From an uncultured Gammaproteobacteria bacterium (lineage in GTDB: Bacteria; Patescibacteriota; Patescibacteriia; Magasanikbacterales; UBA922), in NCBI GenBank assembly GCA_964447765.1, contig CAYUTO010000004.1, positions 93,790 through 157,789 on the forward strand: 64,000 nucleotides of DNA, in the 5' to 3' direction. Below are positions 4,125 through 21,573 of this stretch, one piece after another (position 1 is the stretch's first letter; the number at the start of each line of letters is the position of its first letter). The notes under the pieces were generated by a model. It had not been told where the DNA came from and did not search any database. It was given only the letters and a program-made list of their open reading frames with translations. The translations under genes and the position numbers were made by a program.

Positions 4125-5696
4125 TTATTGAAAAGTGACAGGTACGGAATAGGTATAGTCATGCTCTGGAAGACCCGATGGATTATCCTTGATAAAAGAA
4201 ATTTTTCCTGTTGGAGTAGTTGGACTATCGATAAATGAAACAGTCACCGAAAATGGAACATACTCAGTCGTCATCCAATCAGATTGAGCTTGAGCAATTC
4301 CCTGAGCCACGATTGTACCAATATCATCAGTCACCACTACAGGAAAGCTTGCTTCAAAATACATCGTTCCACGTGCTTTTCCCGTAAAAATGATTGACGG
4401 AGCAGAAGTATCGTAGATATACGGTTCGATAATATCAACCGAAATCAAATCAGGTTCCTCAACTTCTGAAGGAATATCAGTTGCACCCATTACTTTATAG
4501 ATAACTCCTGCATGATCATCACTCACATACAATGACCCGTTCATAAATTTCAAATCTACCGGACGACCTAATGATTTTTTCTCCTTCGTCAGCCATCCTT
4601 CCATAAACGGTTCCTCACCTACAATCTGCCCATTTTTATCAAGCATAATACGCTCAATGGAATATCCTACAGGCACGCTTCGATTCCATGATCCATGGTA
4701 TGCAACGAGAAGATCATTCCAGTACTCTTCAGGCCAAAAACTTTCTTCAGGAATAAAGGCGAGTCCCAATGGAGCAACGTGTGCCGGCAAATCATAAAAA
4801 CTGGCGACTGTATGAGCGCACGGATCCATGATATACGTATTTTTATCAAAATTACTGTCATGTATTCGATTACCAAAACACACCGGCCAACCATAATTTT
4901 TTCCTTCCTCAATAATATTAAGCTCATCTGGTGGAATATTATCACCCAACAAATCACGTCCCATCTCAGTTGCCCACACTTTTCCATTTACTGGATCAGT
5001 GGCCATGAATACTGAATTTCTGAGACCGATTGCATAGGGCGTCAATGTCCACGTATCACCATTTTTTTGCAATTTTTGAATTGATGCATTAAGTGAAGAG
5101 TCTTCATTACACACATTGCACGAAGACCCAATTGAGACGAGTATTTCCTGATTCGGAGTATACGCAAGTGAACGAGTATAGTGAATTCCCTTACCTGTCT
5201 GGAGCTCAACCAATGTAGTGAGGTCAGTCGAAGCAAAGGAAACTGGTTCATTAGTACCAGAAACACGAGTAATTTCAATTGAAGAAATTCGATTCTCTTC
5301 AGCAATATAGAGGATATTAGGATTCTCAATACCAAATAATAGTCCATGTGGATTAGTAAGTCCGGTAACGACATCTATAGTTCGTACCGCTTTTCCATTT
5401 TCCACAATAACCGCCGATATCTTCCCCTCCTTAGTACGTGAGACCCACACATTACCAAATTGATCGAAAGCAAGTACGCGAGCGCCACCCAAATCTCGCG
5501 CAAATACTTCAACAGAAAATCCTTCAGGAAAAGTAAGCACCTCCTCGGCATTTGTATCAACCACATCAGCAATAGGATACGGAGGATCACTGATTGCAGG
5601 CCCTACCCCTCGAAGATGCTTATAATAAAAAACACCAATATAAGTGCTGAGTCCAAGCGCCAGAAGTATAGGAACAATGATAAAAATTTTTTTCAT
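4125..5696 (-). CDS. Secreted PQQ-dependent sugar dehydrogenase-like beta-propeller protein (GSDH/YliI family) with C-terminal Ig-like domain
   Basis: Signal-peptide-like N-terminus MKKIFIIVPILLALG; repeated propeller blades (GLAF, GWP, HxxxG motifs). Confidence 0.5.
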   Translation of the reverse strand: MKKIFIIVPILLALGLSTYIGVFYYKHLRGVGPAISDPPYPIADVVDTNAEEVLTFPEGFSVEVFARDLGGARVLAFDQFGNVWVSRTKEGKISAVIVENGKAVRTIDVVTGLTNPHGLLFGIENPNILYIAEENRISSIEITRVSGTNEPVSFASTDLTTLVELQTGKGIHYTRSLAYTPNQEILVSIGSSCNVCNEDSSLNASIQKLQKNGDTWTLTPYAIGLRNSVFMATDPVNGKVWATEMGRDLLGDNIPPDELNIIEEGKNYGWPVCFGNRIHDSNFDKNTYIMDPCAHTVASFYDLPAHVAPLGLAFIPEESFWPEEYWNDLLVAYHGSWNRSVPVGYSIERIMLDKNGQIVGEEPFMEGWLTKEKKSLGRPVDLKFMNGSLYVSDDHAGVIYKVMGATDIPSEVEEPDLISVDIIEPYIYDTSAPSIIFTGKARGTMYFEASFPVVVTDDIGTIVAQGIAQAQSDWMTTEYVPFSVTVSFIDSPTTPTGKISFIKDNPSGLPEHDYTYSVPVTFQ

Positions 5697-8987: not shown

Positions 8988-9530
8988 CTACCGAACAAAA
9001 CAGCCACGACACAAAGGTTCGTAAGTAAACGTGCCATCATCAGGAATGACCGATGGCATCCCACTAGTAAGAGCTTTCCCCAAACTATACACCTGCGTAT
9101 GCGTTGCAGAAAAATTCTTACAATCATTACACACTGCTCGCTTGTACTTCACATCACGAGGACCAAGCTCAAACAATTTTTTAGTCATTTCAAACAACTC
9201 ACCCCGATAATCAGTATCAAGTCCAGAGACAATCACATCAGTGCCTCGAGACAACAGTTCACCAATATATACGGCATCGGACGGATCAAACATGTGTATT
9301 TCATCGATACCCACAACAGAAAAATCCTTAGCCAAAATTTCTTTCAGAGAATGTATTTTTTCAGCTTCAAGAAAAAGCCCACTTCGTGACTCGATTCCAC
9401 TATCACGCACATTGCGAATAGGCTGAAAGAGCCCATACGAAGAAGTGGAATATTTGAGTGGTGAAAAATGACTGATAAGATCAAACGATTTTCCACTTTT
9501 CATGGGACCAAGAATGAGGGTGAGATGCAT
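8988..9530 (-). CDS. tdk: Thymidine kinase
   Basis: P-loop GPMKSGKS, conserved DEIHMF, C-terminal Zn ribbon CxxC...CxxC. Confidence 0.85.
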   Translation of the reverse strand: MHLTLILGPMKSGKSFDLISHFSPLKYSTSSYGLFQPIRNVRDSGIESRSGLFLEAEKIHSLKEILAKDFSVVGIDEIHMFDPSDAVYIGELLSRGTDVIVSGLDTDYRGELFEMTKKLFELGPRDVKYKRAVCNDCKNFSATHTQVYSLGKALTSGMPSVIPDDGTFTYEPLCRGCFVR

Positions 9531-10654: not shown

Positions 10655-11049
10655 ACACTCATTTTAGCAGCAATAAGATACACAATCACTGACACCGAAG
10701 CTGATAACACCGCCCCCCATATAAGATCAACGACGGTTACATTAAGCGGCCAGTCTCTGATTGTAGCAAGATTAGTCAAATCATAGGTGGCATAAGTGAT
10801 AAGACCAAACAATGCTCCATACAGCAGCGCATGCATCCACGATCCTTTGGCAAGCGCAGGAGAAATAACAAATACCACTAATCCGAAAATAAACAGAAGG
10901 TAAAATATAATTGCGGCAATCCAATTAATATTTGTTTTCATAAGAAAACCCAGATGCTCACGATAAAAATTTTTTGCAACCAACCCGAGCCATATCATGT
11001 CGATAGCAAAAAACACAGGCAATGCGATAGCATATAGTTTGATAAGCAT
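10651..11049 (-). CDS. DUF2177 family membrane protein
   Basis: 4-TM 132-aa protein with the characteristic AIDMIWLG...YDLTN pattern. Confidence 0.55.
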   Translation of the reverse strand: MLIKLYAIALPVFFAIDMIWLGLVAKNFYREHLGFLMKTNINWIAAIIFYLLFIFGLVVFVISPALAKGSWMHALLYGALFGLITYATYDLTNLATIRDWPLNVTVVDLIWGAVLSASVSVIVYLIAAKMSV

Positions 11050-11118
11050 ATAAATCAGTATATAAATAATATCAGCATCATATCAAAAAACCGCCCTGTA
11101 GGCGATTTTTTGATATTT

Positions 11119-11535
11119 CTATTTTGTATTCGCTTCAGCAGCAGCTTTCTCATCCATATAGAATACTTCCCACACATGACCATCCAAATCTTGAATATCC
11201 CGAGAATACATCCACCCATAATCTTGTGGGGGCATAGGCTCGGTAGCACCTGCCGCAAGTGCCTTTTCAAGGAAACTATCCACCTCTTCCCTACTTCCAA
11301 CTGAAAGGGCATTCAAAACCTCCACTTGTCGTGCAGCATCAACAATTTCTTTTTTGGTAAAATCCTTAAATCTATTTTCTACCATAAGCATGGCAAAAAT
11401 ATTCTCACCCATAATCATGCAAGTCGCATTTTCATCAGTGAATTGAGGATTGAAGGTGAATCCAAGCTGGGTAAAAAATTCAATCGATTTCTGTAAATCC
11501 TTTACCGCTAAGTTCACAAAAATTTGCTTAACCAT
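11119..11535 (-). CDS. VOC/glyoxalase-like family protein
   Basis: Paired beta-alpha-beta-beta-beta modules, glyoxalase-like sequence; terminator at 11084-11111. Confidence 0.55.
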   Translation of the reverse strand: MVKQIFVNLAVKDLQKSIEFFTQLGFTFNPQFTDENATCMIMGENIFAMLMVENRFKDFTKKEIVDAARQVEVLNALSVGSREEVDSFLEKALAAGATEPMPPQDYGWMYSRDIQDLDGHVWEVFYMDEKAAAEANTK

Positions 11536-11546
11536 ATAGTAAAAAA

Positions 11547-11945
11547 TTAAGAATTGAGTTTTTTGTCTGCAAAAATTGCTCGGTATTTATCCCAATACGC
11601 ATATCCGAGATATGCAGTAAGAACACTCACTATTACTCCCGTAACCACATATTGAGGTGCTACGGTTCCATTATACACAATAACCCCGATACAAATCGGT
11701 GCCAGGAATAACAACGCAAGTGCAGGCAAAAAACCCACAATAAGCATAAGACCCACCACAACCTCAGTGATTTTAATCAATTGAAAAATTCCCATATCCC
11801 ACAACTGCATCATAGTCGGAACCATAGGAGCCGGTACATTCTTCATTTCAGACCCAGCCATAAGCCCACTCACGCCACTAAAAAAAATAAACAACCCAAG
11901 GAGAATTCTAACAGTGACCACTAATTTACGATTTCGAAAATTCAT
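11547..11945 (-). CDS. DoxX family membrane protein
   Basis: Small 4-TM protein with DoxX-like pattern. Confidence 0.55.
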   Translation of the reverse strand: MNFRNRKLVVTVRILLGLFIFFSGVSGLMAGSEMKNVPAPMVPTMMQLWDMGIFQLIKITEVVVGLMLIVGFLPALALLFLAPICIGVIVYNGTVAPQYVVTGVIVSVLTAYLGYAYWDKYRAIFADKKLNS

Positions 11946-11963
11946 AAGCTACAGTATAAATAA

Positions 11964-12701
11964 CTAAAATAATGGATTAAGTACCTTCTCGATTTTCTCA
12001 AACCAGACTCGATACCCCTCGCCAGAAGGATGAAAATGATCGACTGAATAATATCTCGACACATCTTCAAGAAAGATATCATCAACACCTTCTTGAAGCA
12101 AGTCCACATACGTAACTTTCTTTTCAAAAGCAACTCGGAGATACAACTCACGAACCATTCTTGATTGACGACCGAGATACCAATCAATTGGCTCAGGGAA
12201 AATGGGAGCAGTACCAACATCCGCTGAATGTAAAATGATCACTTGTTTTGATTTTTCGGAAGCTACATCGAGAAGATCACTCAAATCTTTTTCAAGTTCA
12301 TCAAGTGGAGTCCGATGAGTAATATCATTTGCCCCAACCTGTATAAGCAAAAGATTATACAGATCAGTGTCCGTAGATACTCCACGCAATTTAGCAAGTG
12401 TATCAACTACTCTATCTCCACTCTTACTAATGTTAGTAATTTCAGCATGTGGGTAGAGTACACCCAGTCTGCCTGCAGTGGATTCTTCTGGCTTTGCTGC
12501 CCCAATTCCAAAGGCAGTACTATCACCTGCCACCAGTATTCGAGAATCTGGGTTAGGGATCTTCCTCTCAAAAGCGATGGTTGAACGGTATATTCCACGC
12601 CCACGATAAAGAAGCATTCCCACTCGCATGGAATGGTATAGGATTAACATAATCACTATTCCAAGAATAATTTTTATAACAATCGAAAAATCATCTTCCA
12701 T
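11964..12701 (-). CDS. SGNH/GDSL hydrolase family protein
   Basis: N-terminal TM helix; block I VAGDSTAFG (GDS), block III GANDI, block V DxxH. Confidence 0.7.
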   Translation of the reverse strand: MEDDFSIVIKIILGIVIMLILYHSMRVGMLLYRGRGIYRSTIAFERKIPNPDSRILVAGDSTAFGIGAAKPEESTAGRLGVLYPHAEITNISKSGDRVVDTLAKLRGVSTDTDLYNLLLIQVGANDITHRTPLDELEKDLSDLLDVASEKSKQVIILHSADVGTAPIFPEPIDWYLGRQSRMVRELYLRVAFEKKVTYVDLLQEGVDDIFLEDVSRYYSVDHFHPSGEGYRVWFEKIEKVLNPLF

Positions 12702-12744
12702 GATACCCCTTTATTTAAAAAAACTCTTGGTAAAAGCCTAACAC

Positions 12745-12770
12745 AAAACACTGGTATATACCAGTGTTTT
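12745..12770. terminator. Perfect palindrome aaaacactggtatataccagtgtttt (bidirectional terminator-like)
   Basis: 10-bp stem, A-run / T-run on either side. Confidence 0.55.
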
Positions 12771-12782
12771 TGATTTGAACTT

Positions 12783-12959
12783 ATGCCCCAAAAGTCTTAT
12801 TACGTGTACGCTTGCCCACAGCTACAGGATCTCGAAATGCTTTGGGAGGTGCTTGTAATTTTCGAGTATCAAAGGCATGTCCAGGCTTGTCTAATGAATC
12901 AGCCTTCAAACCTTCCTTCTTCAAGGCATCAAGATGATTTTTATACCATTTCTTCATAA
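12783..12959 (-). CDS. Putative 58-aa basic small protein (MKKWYKNHLDALKKEGLKADSLDKPGHAFDTRKL...)
   Basis: ORF below the track cutoff, with a perfect palindromic terminator immediately downstream (12745-12770). Confidence 0.3.
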
Positions 12960-13005
12960 AATTGTATTAAAAACTACGAAAACTAACCTACAATATATAT
13001 CACCA

Positions 13006-14313
13006 TTATCTCGCTTTGTCAAGATTGGCATCAAAGGCTTGTTTAAAAGATGACACAATATACGGAATATCACTAATCATAATAGACTCATTATTATTAA
13101 AGAACCCATTCGTACTCCAATTATTGGTACCAAATACCGCAGTATCATCGTCAACAAGTAACAAATGGTGATGTAAAAAAGAATTAAAATCTTCCTCACC
13201 ATAGACTTCCTGAATTTCAAGATTTCGTTTATGGTCAGTAAAAACCTGAAGATTCTCCAAACGATATAACTCTTTTTGAGAATTCAAAAAAGGAAACACG
13301 GAATCAGTCAAAGCATAATTAGAATCATCAGTGAGTATGGTTGTAGGCACACCCTCCTTACTTTTCTGAAGTATTGTCTGAGCAACAGTAGTATCAGTGA
13401 GATTCCAAATCAATACCTCAATTGTTTTTTTAGTGTCAGCAATGAGACCCAAAAAACGTGTACGCAAACCTACACTATTCGAGGGAGCAGGAGTAAACCA
13501 AATTTCGATATAACCTTCAGGATATCTAAGTAATGCGGCATAGGGATTACGATCAGTGAGAGCACCGCCAGTGTATAAACGATTGAATTCCCTACCAAAT
13601 ACATCAATAATTTCAGGACGAGTTGTTTCTAGCACAAAGCTTGGATCAAATTTCTCTTGGAGAGACGTAAAATTATATGAACCAAAAAAAAGTTTTGCCG
13701 ATACAAAGTTCCGATCAATAAGTATAAACTTATGATGCATCGATCCCCGAGAACTCTCAAAACTAGCATCGACGCGTGAAATATTCTGAGGAGGATTATA
13801 AAAAACCAGATCATGAGTTTCTTTTCGCTTCTCGCTCAAAAGCAACTTCACCGCAACACCACGATTGGCTGCACGATAGAGCGCATCTCGTATCAACGGA
13901 TGATCCATCGAATACACAGCGACCTCGATCTGCACCACTGCTTTGTCTATCGCGTCGATAATAAGTGACGAAAGATGTGTTTGCCCAAAATCAGTATTAA
14001 AATATAATTGTCCTGAAAAAGATTCGAGGATATCAATCGTCTCTCGAGGAGTAAACACCGACGACTGAGAAATGGTGTCCGTCGAAGACACTACTTGATC
14101 CAATGGAAGAGTATATTCTACAACACCCTCATCATGAGAACGCATATAGACAAAAGCAAAAACAAGTATCGATGCAAAAAGTAACAAAAATACAGGGATA
14201 AGCCAAACCAAAAAACGAGGAGTTGTTTCGGGAGAATTAAGAGATGGATCTAATTGTGGTGCCAAGTTCATGTCGTTGAGTGTAGGATAAATAATCATTA
14301 CTATTGTTCGCAA
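13006..14313 (-). CDS. Membrane-anchored phospholipase D family protein (two HKD-like motifs; cardiolipin-synthase-like or PLD nuclease-like)
   Basis: N-terminal TM helix; motif 1 HHKFILID...GSYNFT; motif 2 HHHLLLVDDD...GTNNWS, with His where the canonical Lys would sit; overlaps the upstream gene. Confidence 0.7.
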   Translation of the reverse strand: MRTIVMIIYPTLNDMNLAPQLDPSLNSPETTPRFLVWLIPVFLLLFASILVFAFVYMRSHDEGVVEYTLPLDQVVSSTDTISQSSVFTPRETIDILESFSGQLYFNTDFGQTHLSSLIIDAIDKAVVQIEVAVYSMDHPLIRDALYRAANRGVAVKLLLSEKRKETHDLVFYNPPQNISRVDASFESSRGSMHHKFILIDRNFVSAKLFFGSYNFTSLQEKFDPSFVLETTRPEIIDVFGREFNRLYTGGALTDRNPYAALLRYPEGYIEIWFTPAPSNSVGLRTRFLGLIADTKKTIEVLIWNLTDTTVAQTILQKSKEGVPTTILTDDSNYALTDSVFPFLNSQKELYRLENLQVFTDHKRNLEIQEVYGEEDFNSFLHHHLLLVDDDTAVFGTNNWSTNGFFNNNESIMISDIPYIVSSFKQAFDANLDKAR

Positions 14314-16003
14314 ATACCAACATGATTGAGGTTGGTAGTGCTTGATGTAATATATGTATCATATCAATAATGCGTGGGTATTGTAAATCAAGCCAAAAAT
14401 TATCAATAACCAATACCGGACGATGGGTTACTAGAGAATGCAGTGTGTGCAATGCAAAAGCCTGCAGCGGATTTTTGAGTACCCTATTTGCAGAAGTAGT
14501 ATAATTTCCATCGACTGAAACAAGTTCTACAATAGAAGGATACCGATTCATAATAAGCAGTGCCGAAGCAAATTCTTCCGTAGTAATATCATCTTTCACT
14601 TTACCCATAATACACTCCGCGAGAGTGCGATCTACCCGAAAATTGGGATCAAAAAAATACACATCAGTGCACACATTCTGCCAGCCGACAAACTCAAATC
14701 GTTCAGCATCAACCGTAATTTTTATCGCACGCGGATTATACGCAGCAACACCCGCAAATAATTTTGCCAATGAAGTCTTCCCGGTCATATTGGTACCAAA
14801 AAATAATACACGCTCACCCGGTTTAAAATCAAAACGCATATTTCGATAATACTCTCCTTCTGGAAAAAGCTTGGTCTTGTGACTACGGAAACCAAGTGTT
14901 TTTTCTCTCAGGTGAAAAGCCGTGTCTTTCACATAATTCTTACCTGATTGTACCACCGTCAAAAAAAGGCCCAACCGAGCAGGAAAAAGATATAACCCCA
15001 CTCGTGTAGCTTCGTTCAAGGCACGCGAAAAATAAATAAGTAACAATATAAATAAAAATCGTTCACCAATATGTTCGGTACCTAAAAAAGAAAAAAACGT
15101 TGTGGGGAAAAAATGGCTAAAAATCGAAACAACAATCAAGAAAATAAACACCATTTTAAAACCGAGACGTATCCAAATATCTCGACGTATACGAAAATAT
15201 GAATCAAACCAAACCAGCTTATCAAACTTTTCGAGAATGCTCCGCTCCTGCCCAAACATTTTTAAAAAACTAATATTAGTAGCATTGAAATCTATTTCTC
15301 TAATAATTTGAGAATAGAATGTCACCTCTTGCGAAACATAAAATCGAGATACGAGGTACCCACCAAAAAATAGAAGCACTGATGCAAGAATAAACGCGCC
15401 ACTCACCACAAGAACATGGTAATTACTCACATATGAAATCATGAGTATAATTCCCAAATACATGAGCCAGCGCCAAAATCCAAAAAATGTATTAGAGATA
15501 CCCTGTGTAACCAAAGGAATGTGATACGAAATCTTTGCAATAAGACTCGCGTGTTGTTCTGAGGATGTATGCTGAGGTGAACGACCAAGAAAATTCTTAA
15601 AAATACGACGCCTAATACTATTCGTCAAAAGAACGACAAATGATCGCTCATATTTGATAGCAAAAAAAGAATTGATCAAAAATACACCAATAAGTACTGA
15701 AAACAATAATATAAAATGACTGGAGAGCCATAGGCGAGTCCCGTCTGAAATCTGATCGCGACTAAAAATAATCAACGCAGATTCAATAATACCTTGGGAA
15801 AACAACAAAACCAACAAACCAATAATCAACAAAATATGTTTTTTTGAAAAATCCCGAAGATACTGATAATGATCTTTCGTAAATAAAACCTCCCTCCATT
15901 CACGACTCTCTTTTTTCGCCAACCGAAGAAGCCGAGCCTGCTCCTGCATCTTCTTACTAAAGATATGTGTGACTTTGTGTGTATTATTCTCGACCTCGTC
16001 CAT
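14237..16003 (-). CDS. ABC-exporter-like membrane protein with degenerate nucleotide-binding domain
   Basis: About 6 predicted TM helices followed by a Walker A GTNMTGKTS. The ABC signature is absent and Walker B reads VLVIDN, with the catalytic Glu replaced. The start overlaps the RT stop by about 20 nt. Confidence 0.6.
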   Translation of the reverse strand: MDEVENNTHKVTHIFSKKMQEQARLLRLAKKESREWREVLFTKDHYQYLRDFSKKHILLIIGLLVLLFSQGIIESALIIFSRDQISDGTRLWLSSHFILLFSVLIGVFLINSFFAIKYERSFVVLLTNSIRRRIFKNFLGRSPQHTSSEQHASLIAKISYHIPLVTQGISNTFFGFWRWLMYLGIILMISYVSNYHVLVVSGAFILASVLLFFGGYLVSRFYVSQEVTFYSQIIREIDFNATNISFLKMFGQERSILEKFDKLVWFDSYFRIRRDIWIRLGFKMVFIFLIVVSIFSHFFPTTFFSFLGTEHIGERFLFILLLIYFSRALNEATRVGLYLFPARLGLFLTVVQSGKNYVKDTAFHLREKTLGFRSHKTKLFPEGEYYRNMRFDFKPGERVLFFGTNMTGKTSLAKLFAGVAAYNPRAIKITVDAERFEFVGWQNVCTDVYFFDPNFRVDRTLAECIMGKVKDDITTEEFASALLIMNRYPSIVELVSVDGNYTTSANRVLKNPLQAFALHTLHSLVTHRPVLVIDNFWLDLQYPRIIDMIHILHQALPTSIMLVFANNSNDYLSYTQRHELGTTIRSIS

Positions 16004-17210
16004 AATGAAAATTCTTATAATACTGGTACAGTGAAACAATACCCACGCCCCCCATCACTTCCTTCAACAATCGTCGATGCTGCGGAGAATGTTGTCCATA
16101 GTAAAATTCAGTAAGAATATGAAAAAAATGTTCAGACACTATCCTTATTTGATTCACATCATTCACCTGTGATTTATTCTTGATTATCTCCTGAAATCGA
16201 GTATTAAAATTTGTATAGTTGCTACGCATGATATTTTTGAGAATACGTTTTTTCTTTGCTTCCGACTCATGCTTATAAAGCAGTAAACTCTTCCACTCCG
16301 ATTCAATACGGGCAATAAACCCATCTTCAAGACTAATACGTCCATTCGAAAAGCGATATCCCAAAAAAGAAAAAGTGTCTCTAGCAGACCCAATAAACAG
16401 TTTATCATTATTAAGCTTCAACCCCCTTTCATGGAGTTTAATTTTCATCTCTTTCTCTATAACTTTCAATTTTTCTAAATCCGGATCAAAGAGCGCAAGA
16501 TCATCCCCTACTCGTATATAAAAATCAGACTGACTATCATATCTGAAATCAAGGTCTGAAAGATAGAGATTAGCAAACAAGGCGATTAATGGCACACCTT
16601 GCACAATACCCTGACCGATCGTTTGTATCGAACCACGATCATACACCTGATTGAATATAAAAAGCTTCAATACTTCCACTGTTTCAGTATCCGGAAATAA
16701 TACTTGTAATTTTTCGACTAAATAATCCCGATCAATCAGACTCGAATAATTTTGCAAATCAATCACGAGGCAATGGTCCGTGGTAAAACGCCTGCGATAT
16801 CGACGAGCAAATAAATATGACGCGACATGTGGTGGTCTGCCCGGACGATAGGAAAACAAACGATCAGAAAAACTGCGTTCAAAAACGGGCAATACCACAC
16901 GATAAATTGCCTGTGCCTTGATACGCTCCTTGAGCGTATAAATAAAAATCTCACGAGTCTTGGTAGGATTATTTTTCTTTGGAATACGCAATAAAACAGC
17001 CGGTTCAATGGCTTTGGTATTAATTAACTCATCCTGAATAAGGCTTAGAAGATCATGCGAATTGACCTCATAATCCAATATTTTTTTATGGTCGAGGCCG
17101 TAATATCGAGATTCCTTACTGTCTTTGGCAAATTTTTGAACAATCTCTAGATATGCGGCTTCCAAATTACGCTTGGATATGATTTCTCTAAACATACAAT
17201 ATACAATCAC
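15984..17210 (-). CDS. Free-standing reverse transcriptase (group-II-intron-like/DGR-like RT family, no intron RNA context)
   Basis: RT motif 0 NLEAAY; motifs 1-2 IPKKNNPTKTREIFIYTLKERIKAQAIYRVVLPVFERSFSDRLFSYRPGRPPHVA; motif 3 VIDLQNY; motif 4 QGVPLIALFANLYLSDLD; motif 5 YIRVGDDLALF (catalytic DD); motifs 6-7 LKLNNDKLFI...FSFLGYRF. About 120-aa thumb-like C-terminus. Confidence 0.8.
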   Translation of the reverse strand: MIVYCMFREIISKRNLEAAYLEIVQKFAKDSKESRYYGLDHKKILDYEVNSHDLLSLIQDELINTKAIEPAVLLRIPKKNNPTKTREIFIYTLKERIKAQAIYRVVLPVFERSFSDRLFSYRPGRPPHVASYLFARRYRRRFTTDHCLVIDLQNYSSLIDRDYLVEKLQVLFPDTETVEVLKLFIFNQVYDRGSIQTIGQGIVQGVPLIALFANLYLSDLDFRYDSQSDFYIRVGDDLALFDPDLEKLKVIEKEMKIKLHERGLKLNNDKLFIGSARDTFSFLGYRFSNGRISLEDGFIARIESEWKSLLLYKHESEAKKKRILKNIMRSNYTNFNTRFQEIIKNKSQVNDVNQIRIVSEHFFHILTEFYYGQHSPQHRRLLKEVMGGVGIVSLYQYYKNFHYGRGRE

Positions 17211-17218
17211 TCCCTAAT

Positions 17219-17247
17219 ATATCTGACAGAAATCTATCAGATATTGA
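17219..17247 (-). promoter_or_regulatory. Stable hairpin (9-11 bp stem, 4-nt loop) just upstream of the RT ribosome-binding site
   Basis: Inverted repeat taatctgacag-aaat-ctatcagatatt located about 15 nt upstream of the RT start codon region. Confidence 0.4.
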
Positions 17248-17472
17248 TTATTTCCATTGAGGTCTTCCAAATAGCTTAACAACCTATTTGTTCTTTTCCT
17301 AAAATCGTCAAATTTCATGAAGCTAATGCCGATAGCTTTTCTTTTCATGAACCCGGACGACTGCCGACATCCTGAAACTCAGGTTTTAGGGAATGATTGT
17401 AAAGAGCACGTTAACCCCAAGAATAGCATATCTAGAAAGACAGGTAAACGCCAAATCTATGTTTCACACCCT

Positions 17473-17500
17473 TGATTTTTCCAGAAAATCTGCTAGGCTC
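17473..17500 (+). promoter_or_regulatory. Candidate sigma70-like promoter for the PNP gene (TTGATT-16nt-TAGGCT)
   Basis: -35/-10-like hexamers about 60 nt upstream of the AGGAGA RBS. Confidence 0.3.
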
Positions 17501-17558
17501 TCTCCATCACTCTTGCATATAGAGCAACGTGATCACAACCCAATCAGGAGATAGACGC

Positions 17559-18416
17559 ATGAAAAAAGTGTATACGCAGCTTCAGGAAACCGTGACACAC
17601 CTCGGCAAACGCCTCGGTAAGAAGCAAAGGAAACCACAAGTCGGCATCGTACTCGGCTCAGGTCTCGGAGAGTTCGCAAAGAGGCTCAAGGACCCCGAGT
17701 CGTTCCGCTACCAGGACATCCCTCACTTCCCCGAATCCACCGCTCCCGGCCACGCCGGAACCCTGTGGTTCGGCAAAGTCGGGAGTGTGCGAGTGGTCGT
17801 GATGCAGGGACGTCACCACTACTACGAGGGCAACACCCCGGAGCAGTGTGTCTATGGTCTCCGCACCATGATCAGCATGGGCGCGAGTACCATCATTCTC
17901 ACGAATGCGGCAGGCACGATCGATGATCAGGTGAGTCCGGGAGATCTTCGGATCATCTCCGACCACATCAACATGACCGGAGAAAGCCCGCTTCGTGGAC
18001 ACAATGACACGCGACTCGGACAACGCTTCGTGCCCATGAACGGTGCGTACGATGCAGATCTCCGAGCGCATGCGCTGAACACATGGAGTGAGGATCCGAA
18101 TGCAACGAATTCGATCAACCTTCACAGAGACGGTGTCTACGCGCTCATGGCCGGACCCGAGTACGAGACTCCTGCTGAAATCAACCGACTGAGAAATGCC
18201 GGCGCCAACCTCGTGGGAATGTCAACGGTCTTCGAGACCATCGCGGCCCGTCACATGGGCGCTCGCGTGTTCGCGATGTCGTGCGTCACGAACTACGCTG
18301 CAGGTGTGAAAGGCAGTGTACCAAACGAGCAGGAGGTGCTCGACACGGCACAGCAGTCGTCGAAGAAGTTCGTCGACTTCATGACACACTTCGTCGAGAC
18401 GATGCCACTCTCCTGA
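17559..18416 (+). CDS. punA: Purine nucleoside phosphorylase (PNP-I/PunA family), horizontally acquired (GC-rich)
   Basis: PNP family motifs GIVLGSGLG, ILTNAAG, MAGPEYET, GMSTVFE; AGGAGA RBS before the internal ATG at 17559; G/C-ending codons dominate, unlike neighbouring genes. Confidence 0.85.
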   Translation: MKKVYTQLQETVTHLGKRLGKKQRKPQVGIVLGSGLGEFAKRLKDPESFRYQDIPHFPESTAPGHAGTLWFGKVGSVRVVVMQGRHHYYEGNTPEQCVYGLRTMISMGASTIILTNAAGTIDDQVSPGDLRIISDHINMTGESPLRGHNDTRLGQRFVPMNGAYDADLRAHALNTWSEDPNATNSINLHRDGVYALMAGPEYETPAEINRLRNAGANLVGMSTVFETIAARHMGARVFAMSCVTNYAAGVKGSVPNEQEVLDTAQQSSKKFVDFMTHFVETMPLS

Positions 18417-18432
18417 AGTAGGCGGATGGGGG

Positions 18433-18461
18433 GGGGCAGGGTGCAAAAGCACTCTGCCCCC
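18433..18461 (+). terminator. GC-rich terminator hairpin gggggcagggtgc-aaaa-gcactctgccccc followed by an A/T tract
   Basis: 13-bp stem with one mismatch, directly after the PNP stop codon. Confidence 0.6.
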
Positions 18462-18564
18462 ATCAATTCATTATAAAAAAACAGAGCATTGAAGCTCTAT
18501 TTTTATTTTATCTACATTCAATTATTATCAAAGCTCCACGTCGTAGATAATGTTCGAACTTATT

Positions 18565-18897
18565 TTATGTCTTCTTCCACTGACCATCAATAAAGTCTGC
18601 GACATTATGGCCACCGACAGGAAAGCTGTCCGCATCATAAAAAACAACGTTAATAACACTATTTTTAGCTGATCCTTCTTTATAGTTACCTGCTCTCATA
18701 TATGTGTATTCTGATGTAGTACCGTCTTCCTCGGTAGTAGTAAGTTCTAATAAATAAAGACCTTTTTCATCTTCACGTCTTCTCGTTTCTTTATATTCTT
18801 TTTCTCCAATTATTTCTTTAACAATCGAAACTACTTCTTCTGACGAAGGGATATATTCTCTACTTCCTTCATAACCGCTTGGACCTGTTTCAGACAT
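18565..18897 (-). CDS. Hypothetical acidic protein (110 aa)
   Basis: ORF with native low-GC composition; no recognisable domain. Confidence 0.4.
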   Translation of the reverse strand: MSETGPSGYEGSREYIPSSEEVVSIVKEIIGEKEYKETRRREDEKGLYLLELTTTEEDGTTSEYTYMRAGNYKEGSAKNSVINVVFYDADSFPVGGHNVADFIDGQWKKT

Positions 18898-19003
18898 ATT
18901 GCATATATAAATAAATTAGCATGGTATAAATGTATCATACCAACTTAAAATAAAATATACGCTAAAAAAAATAATGACTTATTTAAGCCATTATTTTCAT
19001 CAG

Positions 19004-19075
19004 CTCCCAGACCTGGATTCGAACCAGGGACCCCCTCGTTAACAGCGAGGTGTTCTACCGCTGAACTATCTGGGA
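19004..19075 (-). tRNA. tRNA-Asn (anticodon GUU)
   Basis: Cloverleaf folds by hand: acceptor TCCCAGA/TCTGGGA, D-stem GTTC/GAAC, anticodon loop CTGTTAA, T-loop TTCGAAT; CCA not encoded. Confidence 0.8.
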
Positions 19076-19237
19076 ATATGTAAGAAAGAAAAATCCCGCA
19101 TCTCGCGGGTATTCATGTTCTTCTATTGCACACGAAAACCCATTACTTTCTGAAGTAATTATTGCAATTATTATTGTTATTCAAGTGGATTTTCATAGCC
19201 CATACGTTATATCATGGAGAAAACCTCACTGTCAAGA

Positions 19238-19268
19238 AACAAAAAACTCCCTTCATGGGAGTTTTTTG
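19238..19268 (-). terminator. Terminator hairpin aaaaactccc-ttca-tgggagttttt downstream of the SIMPL-domain gene
   Basis: Perfect GC-containing stem with flanking A/T runs. Confidence 0.6.
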
Positions 19269-19281
19269 TTTTAACGTAAAA

Positions 19282-20004
19282 CTACTTTACCCCAAATGAT
19301 GCACGTACCGTTGCCATCACCTCTTTTTCAATACTCGAAGTATCATATGAACCGTAATCAGATACTTCAATTGAATTTGGTGAGAGTACCTGAACTACTC
19401 CCTGACTTGCAGAGGTAAGAGCCCCTACACGAGAACCACTACTTTCAGCAATTTTTTCTGCTCGAGCTTTTGCATCCTTTACCGCGTCAGAGAGAAGATT
19501 CACTCGAAGATCGGCAAGCTTGGTATAGTAGTACTCCGTAGGAAATGTCGACATGACAGAACCAATAGAAACCTGCGTCTGAATATTTTTTGAGAGAGCG
19601 GTAACATTCTGAATATCAGTAGACTCAACAGTAAGTGTCTGGCGCACCGTATATCGACGAGGTGCATTGGAATCATAGCCATAATCCTGCTCAGTAAATA
19701 CTGATGAAAGCGTAATAGCAGAAGATGGGATGCTGTGATCTACAATCTCAGACTGAACAATAGATATATCTCTACTCAATGCGGTATACGCCTGATTGAG
19801 TTCAGATGCACTGGCTGTGCGAGAAAGCTGAATAGTCCACTTAACCAAATCTGAAGTCACCGAAGTCTTTGCTGATCCTGTAACCGAAAGAATACCCGGA
19901 TTAGCCACACGTGACGCGTAGAAAAAAATCGAAAATACGAGAGATGCTACAACCATCCCCACAGCAACTACTTTTGCCCCTTGCACAGAAATTTGTTCTG
20001 ACAT
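19282..20004 (-). CDS. SIMPL-domain (DUF541) periplasmic/outer-surface protein
   Basis: N-terminal TM/signal anchor, SIMPL-family pattern across the ORF. Confidence 0.65.
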   Translation of the reverse strand: MSEQISVQGAKVVAVGMVVASLVFSIFFYASRVANPGILSVTGSAKTSVTSDLVKWTIQLSRTASASELNQAYTALSRDISIVQSEIVDHSIPSSAITLSSVFTEQDYGYDSNAPRRYTVRQTLTVESTDIQNVTALSKNIQTQVSIGSVMSTFPTEYYYTKLADLRVNLLSDAVKDAKARAEKIAESSGSRVGALTSASQGVVQVLSPNSIEVSDYGSYDTSSIEKEVMATVRASFGVK

Positions 20005-20019
20005 ATACAGCGAATTAAA

Positions 20020-20463
20020 TTAATTAACTTTTTTATGAAAAATAAACCTATCCAATCCCCACCATTCTCCTACGCGCATGGTGAAGAAAAGTAACAACAC
20101 CAGTGAATAAATAACATGCTCGTCAACAATCAAGGCATGTGAATTGGGATAAGGGAAATCAAGAATAGCAAAATAGTACAGGAGCATAAGCAAAATACCC
20201 GGGATCGTACTCCATCGTACCAAAAGCCCAAGGATTAATGAGACACCAAGAAGGGTGAGCCCCCATGCATTGAGAAAATTAACCACAGGCAAAACTACAG
20301 GATGGAGAAACAATTCATACAACCATACAAAATTTTTAGCGCCCTTGATATATCCTTCTGCAGACCACGCAGGATCAAGCACCTTGGTAATCCCCGCATA
20401 AAACATAAACCACCCCATGGTAATACGGAGAACAACAAGTGAAATTTTTTGACGATGCGTCAT
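20020..20463 (-). CDS. DoxX-family membrane protein
   Basis: 4-TM protein with DoxX-like N-terminal helix pattern (ITMGWFMFYAGITK). Confidence 0.5.
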   Translation of the reverse strand: MTHRQKISLVVLRITMGWFMFYAGITKVLDPAWSAEGYIKGAKNFVWLYELFLHPVVLPVVNFLNAWGLTLLGVSLILGLLVRWSTIPGILLMLLYYFAILDFPYPNSHALIVDEHVIYSLVLLLFFTMRVGEWWGLDRFIFHKKVN

Positions 20464-20485
20464 AGTGTAATTGAGATAATTAAAC

Positions 20486-20511
20486 AACCCTCCCTTAATT
20501 AAGGGAGGGTT
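20486..20511 (-). terminator. Perfect palindrome aaccctccc-ttaattaa-gggagggtt downstream of trpS
   Basis: 9-bp GC-rich stem. Confidence 0.6.
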
Positions 20512-20586
20512 GGTAGGGGTCAAGATATGCACTTCTTAATCTCTGCCGATCATCCCCCAATCAAGGGGAAAATCGATTGATGATAC

Positions 20587-21573
20587 TTACCTGATACCGA
20601 TCATTTTCCGTACTTCCTGTAGAGTAGTTTGTGCTGTCATTGTCGCACGCTCCATCCCACTTGTCAATATCTCCGCAACCTCATCATGCCCCTGCATGAG
20701 CTCATCTCGACGAGCTCGAAAATCCGCAAAATACCCACCAATCGCTTTACCAAGTTCACTCTTCAAATCTCCATAGCGAATCGATCCATCTTTTTCTGCT
20801 TTCACAAATTGTGCATGCACTTTTTTATCTCCAAAAATCTTGAGTAATCCAAGTAGATTCTCAACTCCTGGTGAATGTGTTCCGCCCTCGGTCGCTGTTA
20901 CTGCTTTTTTTAATTTCTTCTCAATCACTGCAGGCTCATCCGCAAGCTCAATCACATGTCCTTCACCCAAAGACTTGCTCATTTTTTTCATTGGTTCAAG
21001 CAAACTCATAATTTTTGGAGTTTCCGTAAGGACATGTTTCACTTCAGGAAAAAATGTATCAAATTTTTTATTAAACCATCGAGCAATATCTCTGGTTAAT
21101 TCTACATGTTGTACTTGATCTTGTCCGACAGGAATATGTGTCGCTCGATACAACAAAATGTCTGCAGCCTGAAGAACAGGATACGTAAAAAGTCCAACAT
21201 TAATATTTTTTGCCTGGGTTTCAGATTTATCTTTGAACTGTGTCATACGTTCAAGCTCAGTAATGGGGGTGACGCAATTAAAAATCCAACCCAATTCAGT
21301 ATGTTGAGGAACATGTGATTGTACAAAAAAGGTAGATTTTTTGGGATCAATTCCTGCAGCCAATAATTCAGAAGCGGTTCGAAGAATCTGTGATTTCCTC
21401 TCACTAGCACTTCTTGTACCGGTAAGTGAATGCAGGTCTGCAATAAAAAAATAACAATCGTACTTTCCAGAATTCTGCAGATCTACCCAATTTTTTACTG
21501 CACCCAAATAATTTCCAATATGAAGATTTCCCGTCGGCTGGATACCAGATACAATAACCGGTCGTTTTGCCAT
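20587..21573 (-). CDS. trpS: Tryptophan--tRNA ligase
   Basis: HIGH-type motif TGNLHIGN and KMSKS motif present, class I TrpRS size. Confidence 0.9.
   Translation of the reverse strand: MAKRPVIVSGIQPTGNLHIGNYLGAVKNWVDLQNSGKYDCYFFIADLHSLTGTRSASERKSQILRTASELLAAGIDPKKSTFFVQSHVPQHTELGWIFNCVTPITELERMTQFKDKSETQAKNINVGLFTYPVLQAADILLYRATHIPVGQDQVQHVELTRDIARWFNKKFDTFFPEVKHVLTETPKIMSLLEPMKKMSKSLGEGHVIELADEPAVIEKKLKKAVTATEGGTHSPGVENLLGLLKIFGDKKVHAQFVKAEKDGSIRYGDLKSELGKAIGGYFADFRARRDELMQGHDEVAEILTSGMERATMTAQTTLQEVRKMIGIR

Follow-up and report, generated by a model that had tools for sequence, protein, structure and literature searches.

On the minus strand of the 64-kb window (the whole stretch of DNA analysed), a CPR bacterium, Ca. 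Magasanikbacteria, carries a so far undescribed, stably inherited gene set that runs in the order putative promoter, structured ncRNA of about 200 nt, reverse transcriptase (RT), pseudo-ABC membrane protein and predicted surface PLD protein. The set, whose ABC-exporter-like member is apparently catalytically dead, is chromosomally fixed and restricted to Patescibacteria. The reading that we favour, at a probability of about 40%, is that the RT uses the ncRNA as its template and that what it makes governs an output module in the membrane, with immunity as the probable role. The literature searched contained no account of a system combining an RT with ABC-like and PLD proteins, as the preliminary description of this DNA had supposed.

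The three minus-strand reading frames, which that description had placed correctly, encode the RT (17195-15984), an MsbA-fold membrane protein (16003-14237) and a double-PLD protein (14271-13006). The RT stop overlaps the ABC-like start by 20 nt in the window and by ~14 nt in most loci, while the overlap of the ABC-like stop with the PLD start (35 nt) is kept across loci at ~35 nt. Gene order was the same wherever the contig was long enough (~60 loci, all of them from Patescibacteria), and collinearity persists down to 32% RT identity. The recurrence of these three genes in one constant order, at all loci where the sequence extends far enough, shows that the arrangement is not a product of chance. 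Pairwise-identity matrices of the three proteins are moreover tightly correlated (r=0.91-0.94; 0/999 permutations in a Mantel test). Collinearity, retained overlaps and co-divergence support the earlier suggestion of a single functional unit made up of these three genes.

The module sits in core, syntenic chromosome settings rather than in defence islands or phages, next to genes such as those for TrpS, thymidine kinase, RNase III and NusB and, in one locus (L006), directly upstream of the 23S rRNA gene. Synteny persists down to 56% RT identity, with a divergence that parallels that of housekeeping genes. Among the 150 nearest flanking proteins there were no restriction, CRISPR, toxin-antitoxin or Abi neighbours; these proteins gave generic ATPase and helicase matches and one MBL family. 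A single family member was found among 2.9 million viral contigs. The module is single-copy and syntenic, without mobile context; in several genomes two diverged paralogous modules occur together.

The gap of 318 nt upstream of the RT, previously given as 320 nt and taken as too small for group II intron RNA domains, contains a conserved structured ncRNA (17401-17202) that had been missed and that was delimited here by covariance model R1, covariation and folding. It is a multi-branched junction with a pseudoknot, closed by the 15-bp helix P1 (17401-17387 with 17216-17202) and enclosing a P2 hairpin, a P4-P5-P3h arm, a variable P6 hairpin and an 11-bp P7 hairpin (17244-17234 with 17229-17219), as well as the conserved single-stranded stretch CCUCAAUGGAAAUAAUCA (17262-17245). 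The pseudoknot pairs 17370-17365 with the P3h loop (17331-17326). Model R1 scores 216 bits at the window ncRNA (E about 1e-52), and at 30 loci it detects the RNA immediately 5' of the RT. Across 27 sequences 93.1% of cells are paired, versus 72.6% in shuffled and 36-47% in slid alignments, the observed value being reached by none of 500 shuffles; compensatory double changes occur in 47 of 56 pairs. The pseudoknot helix, which is absent from the model, is 99.3% paired with compensatory changes in four of its six pairs, and the window ncRNA folded alone adopts the same structure (z = -7.1). No Rfam family matches it. Each of the three RT clades carries its own variant of the RNA, clades B and C sharing the architecture of clade A, and the seven matches of a metagenome scan with the RNA motif alone all lie ~100 nt 5' of this RT. 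With the ncRNA as a fourth component, the mechanistic picture shifts to an RNA-RT pair of the retron/DRT kind.

A putative sigma-70-type promoter of the module may lie at 17425..17454 on the minus strand (-35 TTGGCG, 17454-17449; -10 TATGCT, 17430-17425), ~24 nt before the ncRNA. A consensus scan did not list this site, which matches at 8 of 12 positions; the -10 hexamer (TATGCT/TATACT) is kept in the five closest loci, and locus L007 has a clearer promoter, TTTCCA-17-TATAAT, at the same relative place. At the other end, a minus-strand ORF for a small basic protein of 58 aa (12781..12957) begins 48 nt downstream of the PLD stop. Its conservation as a coding sequence, with synonymous changes, is confined to the window and its closest relatives (L009, L001 and L011); it is a called gene in L001, has no match in Pfam and is a candidate for a fifth operon gene specific to this clade. 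The transcription unit ends at a terminator-like hairpin on the same strand (12745..12771; AAAAACACUGG-UAUAUA-CCAGUGUUUU) that shows compensatory changes in the same four loci, and a minus-strand scan found no terminator-like site inside the RT-ABC-PLD block.

The RT was previously given as a 408-aa ORF at 15984-17210. The ORF is there, but the family alignment sets the real start at MFREIIS (ATG 17195), leaving a protein of 403 aa (15984..17195, minus strand) with motifs 0-7, including every motif quoted earlier, and a thumb-like C-terminal domain; endonuclease and DNA-binding domains are lacking. It matches Pfam RVT_1 at 1.2e-14. Residues D151, G235-D236-D237 and K270 and the LGY motif are invariant in 37 homologues, and since the catalytic residues D151 and D236-D237 are among these the RT should be active. 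With PADLOC scores of 130 bits (generic RT), 118 (RT_UG26), 95 (RT-Cas1) and 91 (UG17), it belongs to a divergent UG26/group-II-like lineage and by profile is not of the DGR type. Its family comprises roughly 50 clusters at 50% identity. RT_UG26, RT-Cas1 and UG17 are the best profiles in the defence library, and the next-nearest relatives in a global search were RT-Cas1 and AEP-TOTE conflict-system fusions.

The ABC-like protein (14237..16003, minus strand, ATG 16003; 588 aa, identical to predicted protein P0121) comprises six TM helices and a degenerate NBD. Matches to Pfam ABC_tran and ABC_membrane and to NCBIfam all fall far below their cut-offs. The whole length of the AlphaFold model (pLDDT 82.5) can be superposed on MsbA, TM287/288, PglK and TAP (top Foldseek matches ~570 columns, E about 1e-17, 13-17% identity), a fold of the MsbA exporter type. 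Walker A reads GTNMTGKTS and Walker B VLVIDN. In alignment A2 the NBD retains the A-loop Tyr, Walker A Lys, Walker B Asp and D-loop and lacks LSGGQ, the Q-loop Gln and the H-loop His, the catalytic Glu being replaced by Asn; with binding residues kept and catalytic ones gone, the domain is predicted, in line with the preliminary description, to bind nucleotide and to be unable to hydrolyse ATP. Invariant residues lie mostly in TM1 (Q70, E74) and in the cytoplasmic helical extensions (N128, R131, Y160, E226, D267, R271, R274).

The PLD protein (13006..14271, minus strand, ATG 14271; 421 aa) starts with a short N-terminus, followed by a single TM helix and a pair of PLD domains (Pfam PLDc_2 x2, 3.5e-32). 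The membrane anchor and the HKD and HxH-variant motifs noticed earlier are borne out: the first domain carries HxKx4D and the second HxHx4D, both invariant in the family (H179/K181/D186/N200 and H367/H369/D374/N384). By sequence it matches NucT, DrmC (3.5e-17 with DISARM DrmC profiles), Nuc and Zucchini-type proteins; its AlphaFold model (pLDDT 89.5) matches the bacterial PLD 7e0m, vaccinia F13, PLD3/PLD4, PLD1/2 and PssA in Foldseek. Lys plus Arg residues average 4.4 before and 2.1 after the TM helix, with the N-terminal side richer in 31 of 39 proteins, and the protein is predicted to be type-II-anchored with its domains facing the outside of the cell; for the window protein itself the positive-inside rule is ambiguous (1:1). 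The preliminary description made no such prediction of outward-facing domains.

Several other explanations of the module have to be weighed. The ncRNA might be a cis-acting leader that controls translation of the operon, either as a riboswitch or as an RT-binding autoregulatory site of the kind that group II introns have in DIVa, with the RT working on other templates, for instance in repair as the G2L4 RT does. At every locus the RNA is indeed a 5' UTR element on the operon strand; the 3' strand of P1 stops, in clade A, 7-10 nt ahead of the AUG and contains the sole Shine-Dalgarno-like element (GGGAG/GGGGA), paired with CCUC/UCCC. However, the 13-14 nt between GGGAG and the AUG make a long spacing for a Shine-Dalgarno sequence, and in clades B and C the RNA ends 35-70 nt from the AUG, with an intervening terminator that does not overlap P1, unlike a riboswitch expression platform. 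Tandem ncRNA copies in L018 and L030 and, in L019, two pilin genes between ncRNA and RT likewise speak against a leader, as do the RNA variant proper to each RT clade and the finding of the ncRNA before no other gene family (743 kb searched and the metagenome scan). The tandem copies and the clade B/C terminator accord better with an RNA acting in trans than with a plain leader, and we regard the leader as unlikely. A decayed mobile retroelement, whether group II intron remnant or retron, is suggested by the solved structures nearest to the RT (GsI-IIC and Roseburia/Eubacterium group II RTs) and by the likeness of long-range P1 to the retron a1/a2 pairing, and yet is highly improbable: the NCBIfam group II RT/maturase score is 114 bits against a cut-off of 300, retron RT profiles match weakly (1e-4), the junction after P1 (AAAAC) has no conserved branching G, and the module is not in a mobile context. 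Group II intron RNA families of Rfam had no match across 10 kb (E<=1) or within the gap (E<=10), and the overlap of the RT stop with the following gene leaves domains V/VI no room; group II intron identity was thus rejected, as it had been earlier. CPR genomes are rich in DGRs (PMC8632793), and a diversity-generating module acting on the PLD protein or another target had been proposed. That idea is now barely credible and DGR identity was rejected: no TR/VR-type repeat occurs in 11-21 kb, where repeats of <=33 nt at 67-90% identity are at chance level, and no part of the RT upstream region has a second copy in the 64-kb window. Besides the RT type, the even purifying constraint on the PLD and ABC-like proteins, with their invariant motifs, argues against it.

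A strong alternative, if in our view somewhat less likely than the favoured reading, is an envelope-spanning machine for the export or handling of nucleic acids rather than immunity. An RT-ncRNA particle would synthesise DNA, or a hybrid of RNA and DNA, for threading or flipping through the exporter-fold protein; the surface PLD would trim or release this product or transfer it to an acceptor, directionality coming from polymerisation instead of ATP hydrolysis. In reverse, the surface PLD nuclease and the channel would take up foreign nucleic acid for the RT to copy. Either might serve host attachment, a DNA matrix or the nucleotide economy of an episymbiont unable to synthesise nucleotides. 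Vertical, syntenic inheritance in core-genome settings outside defence islands and phages, strict co-divergence, the full exporter fold and extracytoplasmic parts in two of the three proteins and in a fourth protein of clade B are all in its favour. So are the sister RTs outside CPR, which lie tail-to-tail with orthologous true ABC exporters, and the PLD protein, which has its type II anchor and two-domain layout in common with the ssDNA/RNA 5' exonucleases PLD3/PLD4 and also matches NucT, the transformation and purine-salvage nuclease of H. pylori. Recurrent neighbours include type IV pilins (11 loci), PilB, DprA/ComM, thymidine kinase, PNP and NrdD; these themes are, however, weak and partly those of one syntenic lineage, and CPR genomes are rich in pilins anyway. 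Against such a machine stand the NBD, which should be unable to hydrolyse ATP, and the fact that substrate and topology of the PLD are predictions. We know of no system in which nucleic acid leaves or enters the cell by way of a type IV ABC fold, and all RT systems with an ncRNA and accessory proteins characterised to date are, to our knowledge, immune systems.

In the RNA-templated response that we favour, the ncRNA would form the 5' portion of the operon transcript or, in some clades, be made separately, ending at its own terminator (as between ncRNA and RT in clades B and C). By analogy with retrons, DRT2, DRT9 and DRT10, in which the RT binds its own RNA partner and reverse-transcribes a portion of it into cDNA, the RT, with its intact polymerase centre, would do the same here. 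A homodimeric MsbA-fold protein may then read the RT-RNA-cDNA complex on its cytoplasmic side; its NBDs would bind nucleotide without hydrolysis, and its conserved, Arg-rich cytoplasmic helices are its most constrained part. Together with the outward phosphodiesterase of the PLD protein it would form an output device at the envelope. Type I-A retrons, where an RT-ncRNA is paired with an ABC-type ATPase and a nuclease, are a precedent for such a logic. The closest characterised analogue is DRT10/UG17, in which a structured ncRNA and an RT are joined by a SLATT membrane effector and cDNA is the signal (bioRxiv 10.64898/2026.04.29.721553). Unlike the shuffled RT/SLATT pairs reported for DRT10 (bioRxiv 10.64898/2026.04.29.721553), the three proteins of the module have co-diverged strictly, a contrast that counts for the export or handling machine.

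We favour the view that the response amounts to surveillance or immunity of the abortive-infection type, in which phage attack would change the level of cDNA and thereby switch on the membrane/PLD module. The defence role suggested by the preliminary description is unproven. The kinship of the RT with conflict systems, in profile matches as in its RT-Cas1 and AEP-TOTE relatives, speaks for it, as do the DISARM DrmC match of the PLD protein and the paired paralogous modules of several genomes; the lack of a defence-island signature, the core contexts, the vertical synteny and the near absence from viral contigs speak against it, as would the predicted position of the PLD domains, since a nuclease outside the cell cannot reach replicating phage DNA. 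The module probably turns an RNA signal into an envelope response. If this is true, a tiny symbiotic CPR bacterium has an RNA-RT signal that acts at its cell envelope.

Three overlapping genes were found on the minus strand of the window, exactly at the positions that the preliminary description had assigned to a reverse transcriptase (RT), an ABC-like membrane protein and a PLD-family protein. The start of the RT gene, whose ORF occupies 15984-17210, was placed at the ATG at 17195 because all 37 RT homologues share in their alignment an N-terminus equivalent to MFREIIS; the location and the motifs originally quoted for this ORF stand, and its length is corrected from 408 to 403 aa. The RT stop overlaps by 20 nt the ABC-like gene (16003-14237; 588 aa, identical to database protein P0121), which in turn overlaps the PLD gene (14271-13006; 421 aa) by 35 nt. 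The annotations of close homologues are limited to "hypothetical protein", "ABC transporter ATP-binding protein" and "DUF1669 domain-containing protein". The window organism is a Candidatus Magasanikbacteria MAG; the record title 'uncultured Gammaproteobacteria bacterium' on many module-bearing MAGs (loci L009, L012-L016 and others) looks like a placeholder mislabel, since gene content and the module itself point to Patescibacteria.

Homologues of the RT form approximately 166 clusters, each of about 400 aa, and come exclusively from Patescibacteria (Candidate Phyla Radiation, CPR). Exact protein look-up returned eight contexts in which the RT is followed by a ~570-aa protein and a ~400-aa PLD protein, and the same RT/ABC-like/PLD order was seen in 51 loci from a one-genome-per-species scan and in seven further loci reached only through the RNA described below. 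This order is kept wherever the contig is long enough, down to 32% RT identity (Peribacteria), between flanking genes that are otherwise unrelated and with conserved overlaps of approximately 14 nt and 35 nt. Matrices of pairwise identity, computed for each of the three proteins over 43 non-redundant loci, are correlated at r = 0.91-0.94 (Mantel test, 0/999 permutations), and several MAGs harbor two diverged copies of the module, e.g. L025 and L038 on one contig. Collinearity, conserved overlaps and co-divergence bear out the earlier proposal that the overlapping genes form a functional unit: the module is real, conserved and inherited as one unit. Literature searches on the RT, ABC and PLD combination, on CPR RTs and on UG26 returned no description of it, and it is a new architecture, including a new RNA class, within the known class of RT-ncRNA-effector systems.

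The RT start is separated from the preceding ORF by approximately 250-330 nt in nearly all loci, an unusual spacing for compact CPR genomes. Taken to be empty in the preliminary description, this gap contains a structured RNA of approximately 200 nt (17401-17202 in the window, minus strand), apparent from alignments as a conserved block ending just 5' of the ATG with obvious compensatory changes. A covariance model built from eight sequences (R1) matches directly 5' of the RT in 30 loci with E-values of 1e-8 to 1e-54; the window match spans 17193-17402 and scores 216 bits. A 15-bp helix, P1 (17401-17387 paired with 17216-17202), closes a junction containing hairpin P2, an arm composed of P4, P5 and P3h, a hairpin of variable length (P6), the conserved single strand CCUCAAUGGAAAUAAUCA and an 11-bp hairpin (P7). 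Standard pairs fill 93.1% of the cells of a 27-sequence model-based alignment, as against 72.6% upon shuffling (a level reached by 0/500 shuffles) and 36-47% with slid partners, and 47 of the 56 pairs show changes on both sides. The junction following P2 further forms with the P3h loop a six-pair pseudoknot that is 99.3% paired, four of its pairs being compensatory; since it is absent from the model, it supports the structure independently. Folded alone, the window sequence yields the same helices (z = -7.1). Of the three RT clades, B and C were analyzed with MAFFT and RNAalifold; the same architecture emerged de novo in clade B (45/55 pairs compensatory) and is also present in clade C.

Rfam 15 searched at permissive thresholds contains no family matching this ncRNA; the RT-associated RNA motifs RT-1 to RT-19 of Weinberg 2017 (PMC5737381), which we take to be among the Rfam families, were rejected as candidates on that basis. 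When metagenomes were scanned for the RNA pattern only, seven matches were retrieved, each of which precedes an RT gene of the family by approximately 100 nt on the same strand. R1 gave no matches on distant clades or on the non-CPR loci of sister RTs, where upstream regions are GC-rich and structured-looking and homology to the ncRNA could not be shown. A DRT10-like template bounded by two direct repeats within the conserved single strand was also considered, the window clade displaying UCAAU...UCAAU, and was dismissed upon inspection of the alignments as the copies do not covary across clades. Tandem ncRNA copies precede a single RT at L018 (6522-6709 and 6825-7005) and at L030 (6646-6817 and 6827-7018), and the upstream copy at L018 even includes the ATG context of the RT start.

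That the RNA acts purely in cis, as a regulatory leader of the RT gene, strikes us as improbable. In clade A, the 3' strand of P1 stops 7-10 nt 5' of the AUG and holds the sole Shine-Dalgarno-like run, so that some translational control is plausible; the GGGAG, however, lies 13-14 nt away from the AUG. In clades B and C, moreover, the RNA comes with a promoter-like site of its own, and between it and the RT stands a hairpin that resembles an intrinsic terminator and is separate from P1. Because of these features, of the tandem copies in L018 and L030, of the two pilin genes intervening between RNA and RT in L019 and of the existence of a separate RNA variant for each RT clade, we read the RNA as the trans-acting cognate RNA of the RT, by analogy with those of retrons, DRT2, DRT9 and DRT10, and infer that it would serve as a template.

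The window RT matches Pfam RVT_1 and contains all of the motifs initially listed; the 37 homologues show no variation at the catalytic residues D151 and D236-D237, at K270 or in the LGY of motif 7. The deviations first pointed out at motif 4 (QGVPLIA versus QGxxLSP) and motif 5 (R-V/I-G-D-D versus YADD/YIDD) are genuine. Motif 5 (residues 233-237, approximately 16487-16501) reads R-V-G-D-D in the window, its second position being V, I, L or C in the family. A G-D-D core is typical of viral RNA-dependent RNA polymerases, RTs typically having Y-x-D-D. We note that one homologue bears a precomputed match to the Bunyavirus RdRp family of Pfam (PF04196) and that a distant tandem-RT relative matches RdRP_1; proteins P0324, P0326 and P0336 (834-858 aa), distant relatives retrieved by profile search, are tandem RT-RT fusions with GIIM-like thumbs.

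PADLOC profiles score the window RT at 130 bits (generic RT), 118 bits (RT_UG26), 95 bits (RT-Cas1) and 91 bits (UG17); RT_UG26, the best named profile of this defence library, aligns over positions 14-319 of 398. The group II RT/maturase model TIGR04416 of NCBIfam reaches 114 bits against a cut-off of 300, and the closest solved structures by sequence are group II intron RTs (6ar1 at 1.2e-16, 5hhj and 7uim). An exhaustive profile search of 1.84 billion representatives delineated a compact family of approximately 50 clusters scoring from 547 down to about 230 bits, beyond which came a few full-length sister RTs (140-230 bits), followed by RT-Cas1 and AEP-TOTE conflict-system fusions that match the RT core only. 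The sister RTs, which are from non-CPR bacteria, match RT_UG26 over its full length at 157-185 bits. On these profile comparisons the family is best described as a divergent relative of UG26, between class-2 UG/Abi and group-II-like RTs; it is a relative rather than a demonstrated member because scores to UG26 are no higher than those to generic or group II profiles, and the family is a demonstrated member of no named group.

Better-known classes of RT elements were rejected. A group II intron, already deemed absent in the preliminary description, finds no room 3' of the RT given the 20-nt overlap of the RT stop with the next ORF, and neither Intron_gpII nor group-II-D1D4 of Rfam was detected in 11000-21000 (E<=1) or in 17100-17560 (E<=10). 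The diversity-generating module envisaged at the same time is not borne out: a repeat finder run on 11-21 kb yielded only repeats of at most 33 nt, at chance level, with no template/variable pair, and low-stringency BLAST revealed no second copy of the RT upstream region in the 64-kb window. The long-range, covarying closing helix P1 resembles the a1/a2 pairing of retrons; the junction that follows its 5' strand is a conserved AAAAC, with no conserved branching G. By its clade the RT is not that of a retron; the best retron profile among the 25 PADLOC matches listed, RT_II-A, reaches 1e-4, as against 1e-33 to 1e-38 for generic, UG26 and group II profiles.

The AlphaFold model of the ABC-like protein (pLDDT 82.5) consists of a six-TM exporter transmembrane domain followed by a nucleotide-binding domain, and superposes over approximately 570 columns on MsbA, TM287/288, PglK and TAP at 13-17% identity (Foldseek E-values of about 1e-17, TM-scores of 0.6-0.7). 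The nucleotide-binding set, consisting of the A-loop Tyr (Y385), Walker A G408-K409 and Walker B D534, is kept in at least 90% of sequences and the D-loop is retained, whereas the Walker B consensus of the family, IIIDN, has Asn throughout in place of the catalytic Glu, and the Q-loop Gln, LSGGQ and H-loop His are absent at the aligned positions in 42 sequences; Pfam scores stay under the gathering thresholds, that of ABC_tran being 22.6 for a cut-off of 25. In agreement with the degenerate domain originally described, and judging from the residues kept and those lost, the protein should bind nucleotide and not hydrolyze it. Conservation is strongest at Q70 and E74 in TM1 and at the charged set N128, R131, E226, D267, R271 and R274 in the cytoplasmic helical extensions. 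The protein shares with type IV ABC exporters its full-length fold and the residues retained in the A-loop, Walker A, Walker B and D-loop; it differs from them in that both nucleotide sites of a presumed homodimer would be degenerate and in that its gene invariably has an RT gene on one side and a PLD gene on the other.

The PLD protein contains two PLDc_2 domains (111 bits, cut-off 27), the first with the canonical HxKx4D motif and the second with a variant, HxHx4D, that is invariant in the family. Its AlphaFold model (pLDDT 89.5) displays a two-domain PLD fold resembling, by Foldseek, bacterial PLD, vaccinia F13, PLD3/PLD4, PLD1/2 and PssA; matches by sequence are to NucT, Nuc, Zucchini and DrmC. 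Lys and Arg residues average 4.4 before the TM segment versus 2.1 after it and are more numerous on the N-terminal side in 31 of 39 PLD proteins (the window protein being uninformative), from which, following the positive-inside rule, the catalytic domains are predicted to reside outside the cell. Such an N-terminal anchor with predicted non-cytoplasmic catalytic domains is reminiscent of PLD3/PLD4, which are type-II-anchored ssDNA/RNA exonucleases; unlike these and the Nuc/NucT/Zucchini/DrmC branch, however, the second motif is HxH rather than HxK. True phospholipases and PssA were retrieved at similar Foldseek scores, so the substrate may be nucleic acid or lipid.

The module lies between TrpS-DoxX-SIMPL and thymidine kinase in the window, L001 and L002, and the synteny is kept to 56% RT identity. 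Compared with L001/L002, its divergence (RT 83%/56%, ABC 78%/46%, PLD 72%/48%) parallels that of thymidine kinase and SIMPL, albeit somewhat faster. In L006 the module is directly upstream of the rRNA operon, since the 3.5-kb stretch without called genes after PLD (12486-15741) corresponds to the 23S and 5S rRNA genes. Restriction, CRISPR, toxin-antitoxin and Abi genes were not encountered among the 150 nearest flanking proteins, which gave only generic helicase/ATPase matches and a metallo-beta-lactamase (MBL) family in four syntenic loci; the features expected of a defence system (defence neighbours, mobile elements, patchy distribution) were not observed, a result still compatible with a role in defence. 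A phage origin was dismissed, a single family member occurring in the 2.9 million viral contigs of IMG/VR.

Immediately downstream of the module in the window, 48 nt after the PLD stop, is a basic 58-aa ORF (12781-12957, minus strand; MKKWYKNHLDALKKEG...KRTRNKTFGA) with no Pfam match and whose coding is conserved only in the closest relatives, L009, L001 and L011. It is followed by a terminator-like hairpin (12745-12771, minus strand) and a gene for a membrane-anchored GDSL/SGNH lipase-esterase (11964-12701, minus strand; Lipase_GDSL_2, 4.6e-20), a second envelope hydrolase beside PLD that is not conserved near the module in other loci. Nucleotide-salvage genes are found on both sides: a purine nucleoside phosphorylase gene (17529-18416, plus strand; PNP_UDP_1, 2.7e-48) divergent from the putative RNA promoter, and the thymidine kinase gene (8988-9530, minus strand) approximately 3.5 kb downstream. 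Thymidine kinase is also close to the module in L001 and L002, and NrdD/NrdR in L004.

Recurrent neighbours include type IV pilins, true ABC exporters, ECF sigma factors, giant surface proteins and a fourth gene proper to clade B. Pilin-like genes occur within 6.5 kb of the module in 11 of 43 loci; an N_methyl pilin gene immediately precedes the ncRNA in L004 and L020, and two type IV pilin paralogues separate the ncRNA (4823-5004) from the RT (at 7016) in L019, with a third just upstream. A competence/pilus theme was set aside as too dependent on shared synteny and on the richness of CPR genomes in pilins. The clade-B gene (12173-12769 in L008; also in L040-L044, L046, L049, L053, L055 and L059) begins 60-90 nt after PLD and encodes a protein of approximately 195 aa in which a TM helix at the N-terminus is combined with two helical repeats (NAAIxQAIxxGDYxxW...), whose Pfam matches are all weak and sub-threshold. 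Divergently upstream of the RNA in L006 (6849-7712, minus strand), and also present in L036, L037 and L039, is a gene for a TM-anchored MBL-fold protein of one syntenic sub-clade, which matches the PADLOC profile 'RTasMBL' at 1e-23; RTasMBL is the MBL that accompanies a UG9 RT variant and Avs1. In L007 (clade C), the module is followed at 12430-16789 by competence-related genes, namely ComM (Mg-chelatase-like), DprA and NERD/UPF0102, flanked by IS200/IS605-type Y1 transposases.

Outside CPR, the UG26-like sister RTs P0327 and P0349 of GC-rich bacteria (L060, 1059-4134; L064, 13-3297) are convergent, tail-to-tail, with a true ABC exporter gene, with an overlap of 30-92 nt and no PLD gene. The two exporters are orthologous (47% identical) and carry the signature FSRGE; that of L064 has lost the H-loop His and has DD at Walker B. 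The pairing of sister RTs with orthologous, partly eroded true exporters suggests that RT and ABC proteins were linked before the CPR module arose.

The closest characterized analogue is DRT10/UG17, in which a SLATT membrane effector works with an RT and a structured ncRNA, the ncRNA templating a cDNA that serves as the signal (bioRxiv 10.64898/2026.04.29.721553). Both associate a clade-specific structured ncRNA with an RT of approximately 400 aa without extra domains and a membrane-protein output, both show tight gene overlaps, and the UG17 profile matches the window RT at 2e-26. The membrane partner differs, a 588-aa ABC-exporter fold taking the place of the two-TM SLATT protein, and a surface PLD comes in addition; no SLATT-5 gene is found beside the RT, whose neighbours in every locus are the ABC-exporter-fold and PLD proteins. 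The proteins of our module have co-diverged, whereas in DRT10 the RT tree disagrees with the SLATT tree (bioRxiv 10.64898/2026.04.29.721553); the module resides in the CPR core genome and DRT10 in defence islands or P2/P4 hotspots, and the module RNA has no conserved tandem-repeat template motif. UG26 RTs, of class 2 UG/Abi, are similar in size to the window RT and likewise lack fused domains; a YcjD/Vsr endonuclease accompanies them in 9/35 cases, with no ABC-like protein, PLD or ncRNA reported (PMC9226505). With group II intron RTs such as GsI-IIC and G2L RTs such as G2L4, the window RT has in common the RT0 motif and a maturase-like thumb, and, as for G2L, its gene is free-standing without intron RNA, which is the definition of that group. 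G2L4 acts alone, in double-strand-break repair, whereas the module RT is paired with an ncRNA of its own, encoded upstream, and with two constant membrane partners. Type I-A retrons combine RT-msDNA with the ABC-type ATPase PtuA and the HNH nuclease PtuB. They resemble the module in their RT, upstream ncRNA with a long-range closing helix, ABC-type nucleotide-binding protein and nuclease-family protein. The module RT, however, falls outside the retron clade and its RNA has no conserved branching G; its ATPase-like protein is a membrane exporter fold and appears catalytically dead, and its nuclease-family protein is a PLD predicted to be extracellular.

Of the functions that can be envisaged for the module, we favor, with a probability of roughly 0.4, one in which the RT would copy the ncRNA and the resulting product would control the membrane/PLD output module in an abortive-infection-like response. 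This immune reading is the best single explanation in view of the analogy with DRT10/UG17 and because, to our knowledge, all RT systems with an ncRNA and accessory proteins characterized so far are immune. A non-immune, envelope-spanning machine dedicated to the export or handling of nucleic acids fits almost as well, and we rate it only somewhat below the immune reading. In its favor are the location of the module in the core genome and its vertical inheritance, the strictness with which the three proteins have co-diverged, the exporter fold of the ABC-like protein, the predicted outward orientation of PLD and the sister RT-exporter pairs outside CPR. In a more specific and more doubtful form of this idea, the module would be the first RT-driven envelope conduit: an RT-ncRNA particle docked on a dead exporter-fold channel may pass nucleic acid out of the cell for the surface PLD to trim, release or transfer to an acceptor or, in the reverse direction, foreign nucleic acid may be taken up and copied by the RT. 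Were such a conduit to exist, episymbiotic CPR bacteria would have a dedicated means of displaying, secreting or acquiring nucleic acid where they meet the host, and the association of non-CPR sister RTs with true ABC exporters would represent the ancestral form of the same coupling.

RT-ncRNA pairs such as retrons, DRT2, DRT9 and DRT10 have each yielded unexpected biochemistry and become genome-engineering tools. To these the module adds an RT lineage whose active-site box, R-V-G-D-D, is unusual, a ~200-nt RNA class built on a pseudoknotted multi-branched junction, and a partner set unseen before, that of an exporter-fold pseudo-ATPase and a PLD protein predicted to face outward. CPR organisms have few known immune systems, lack nucleotide and lipid synthesis and live attached to hosts. 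If immune, the module would provide them with a defence specific to CPR, whose output is at the membrane or surface and which is retained vertically in the manner of a housekeeping gene; otherwise, it may represent the first coupling of an RT to envelope transport.
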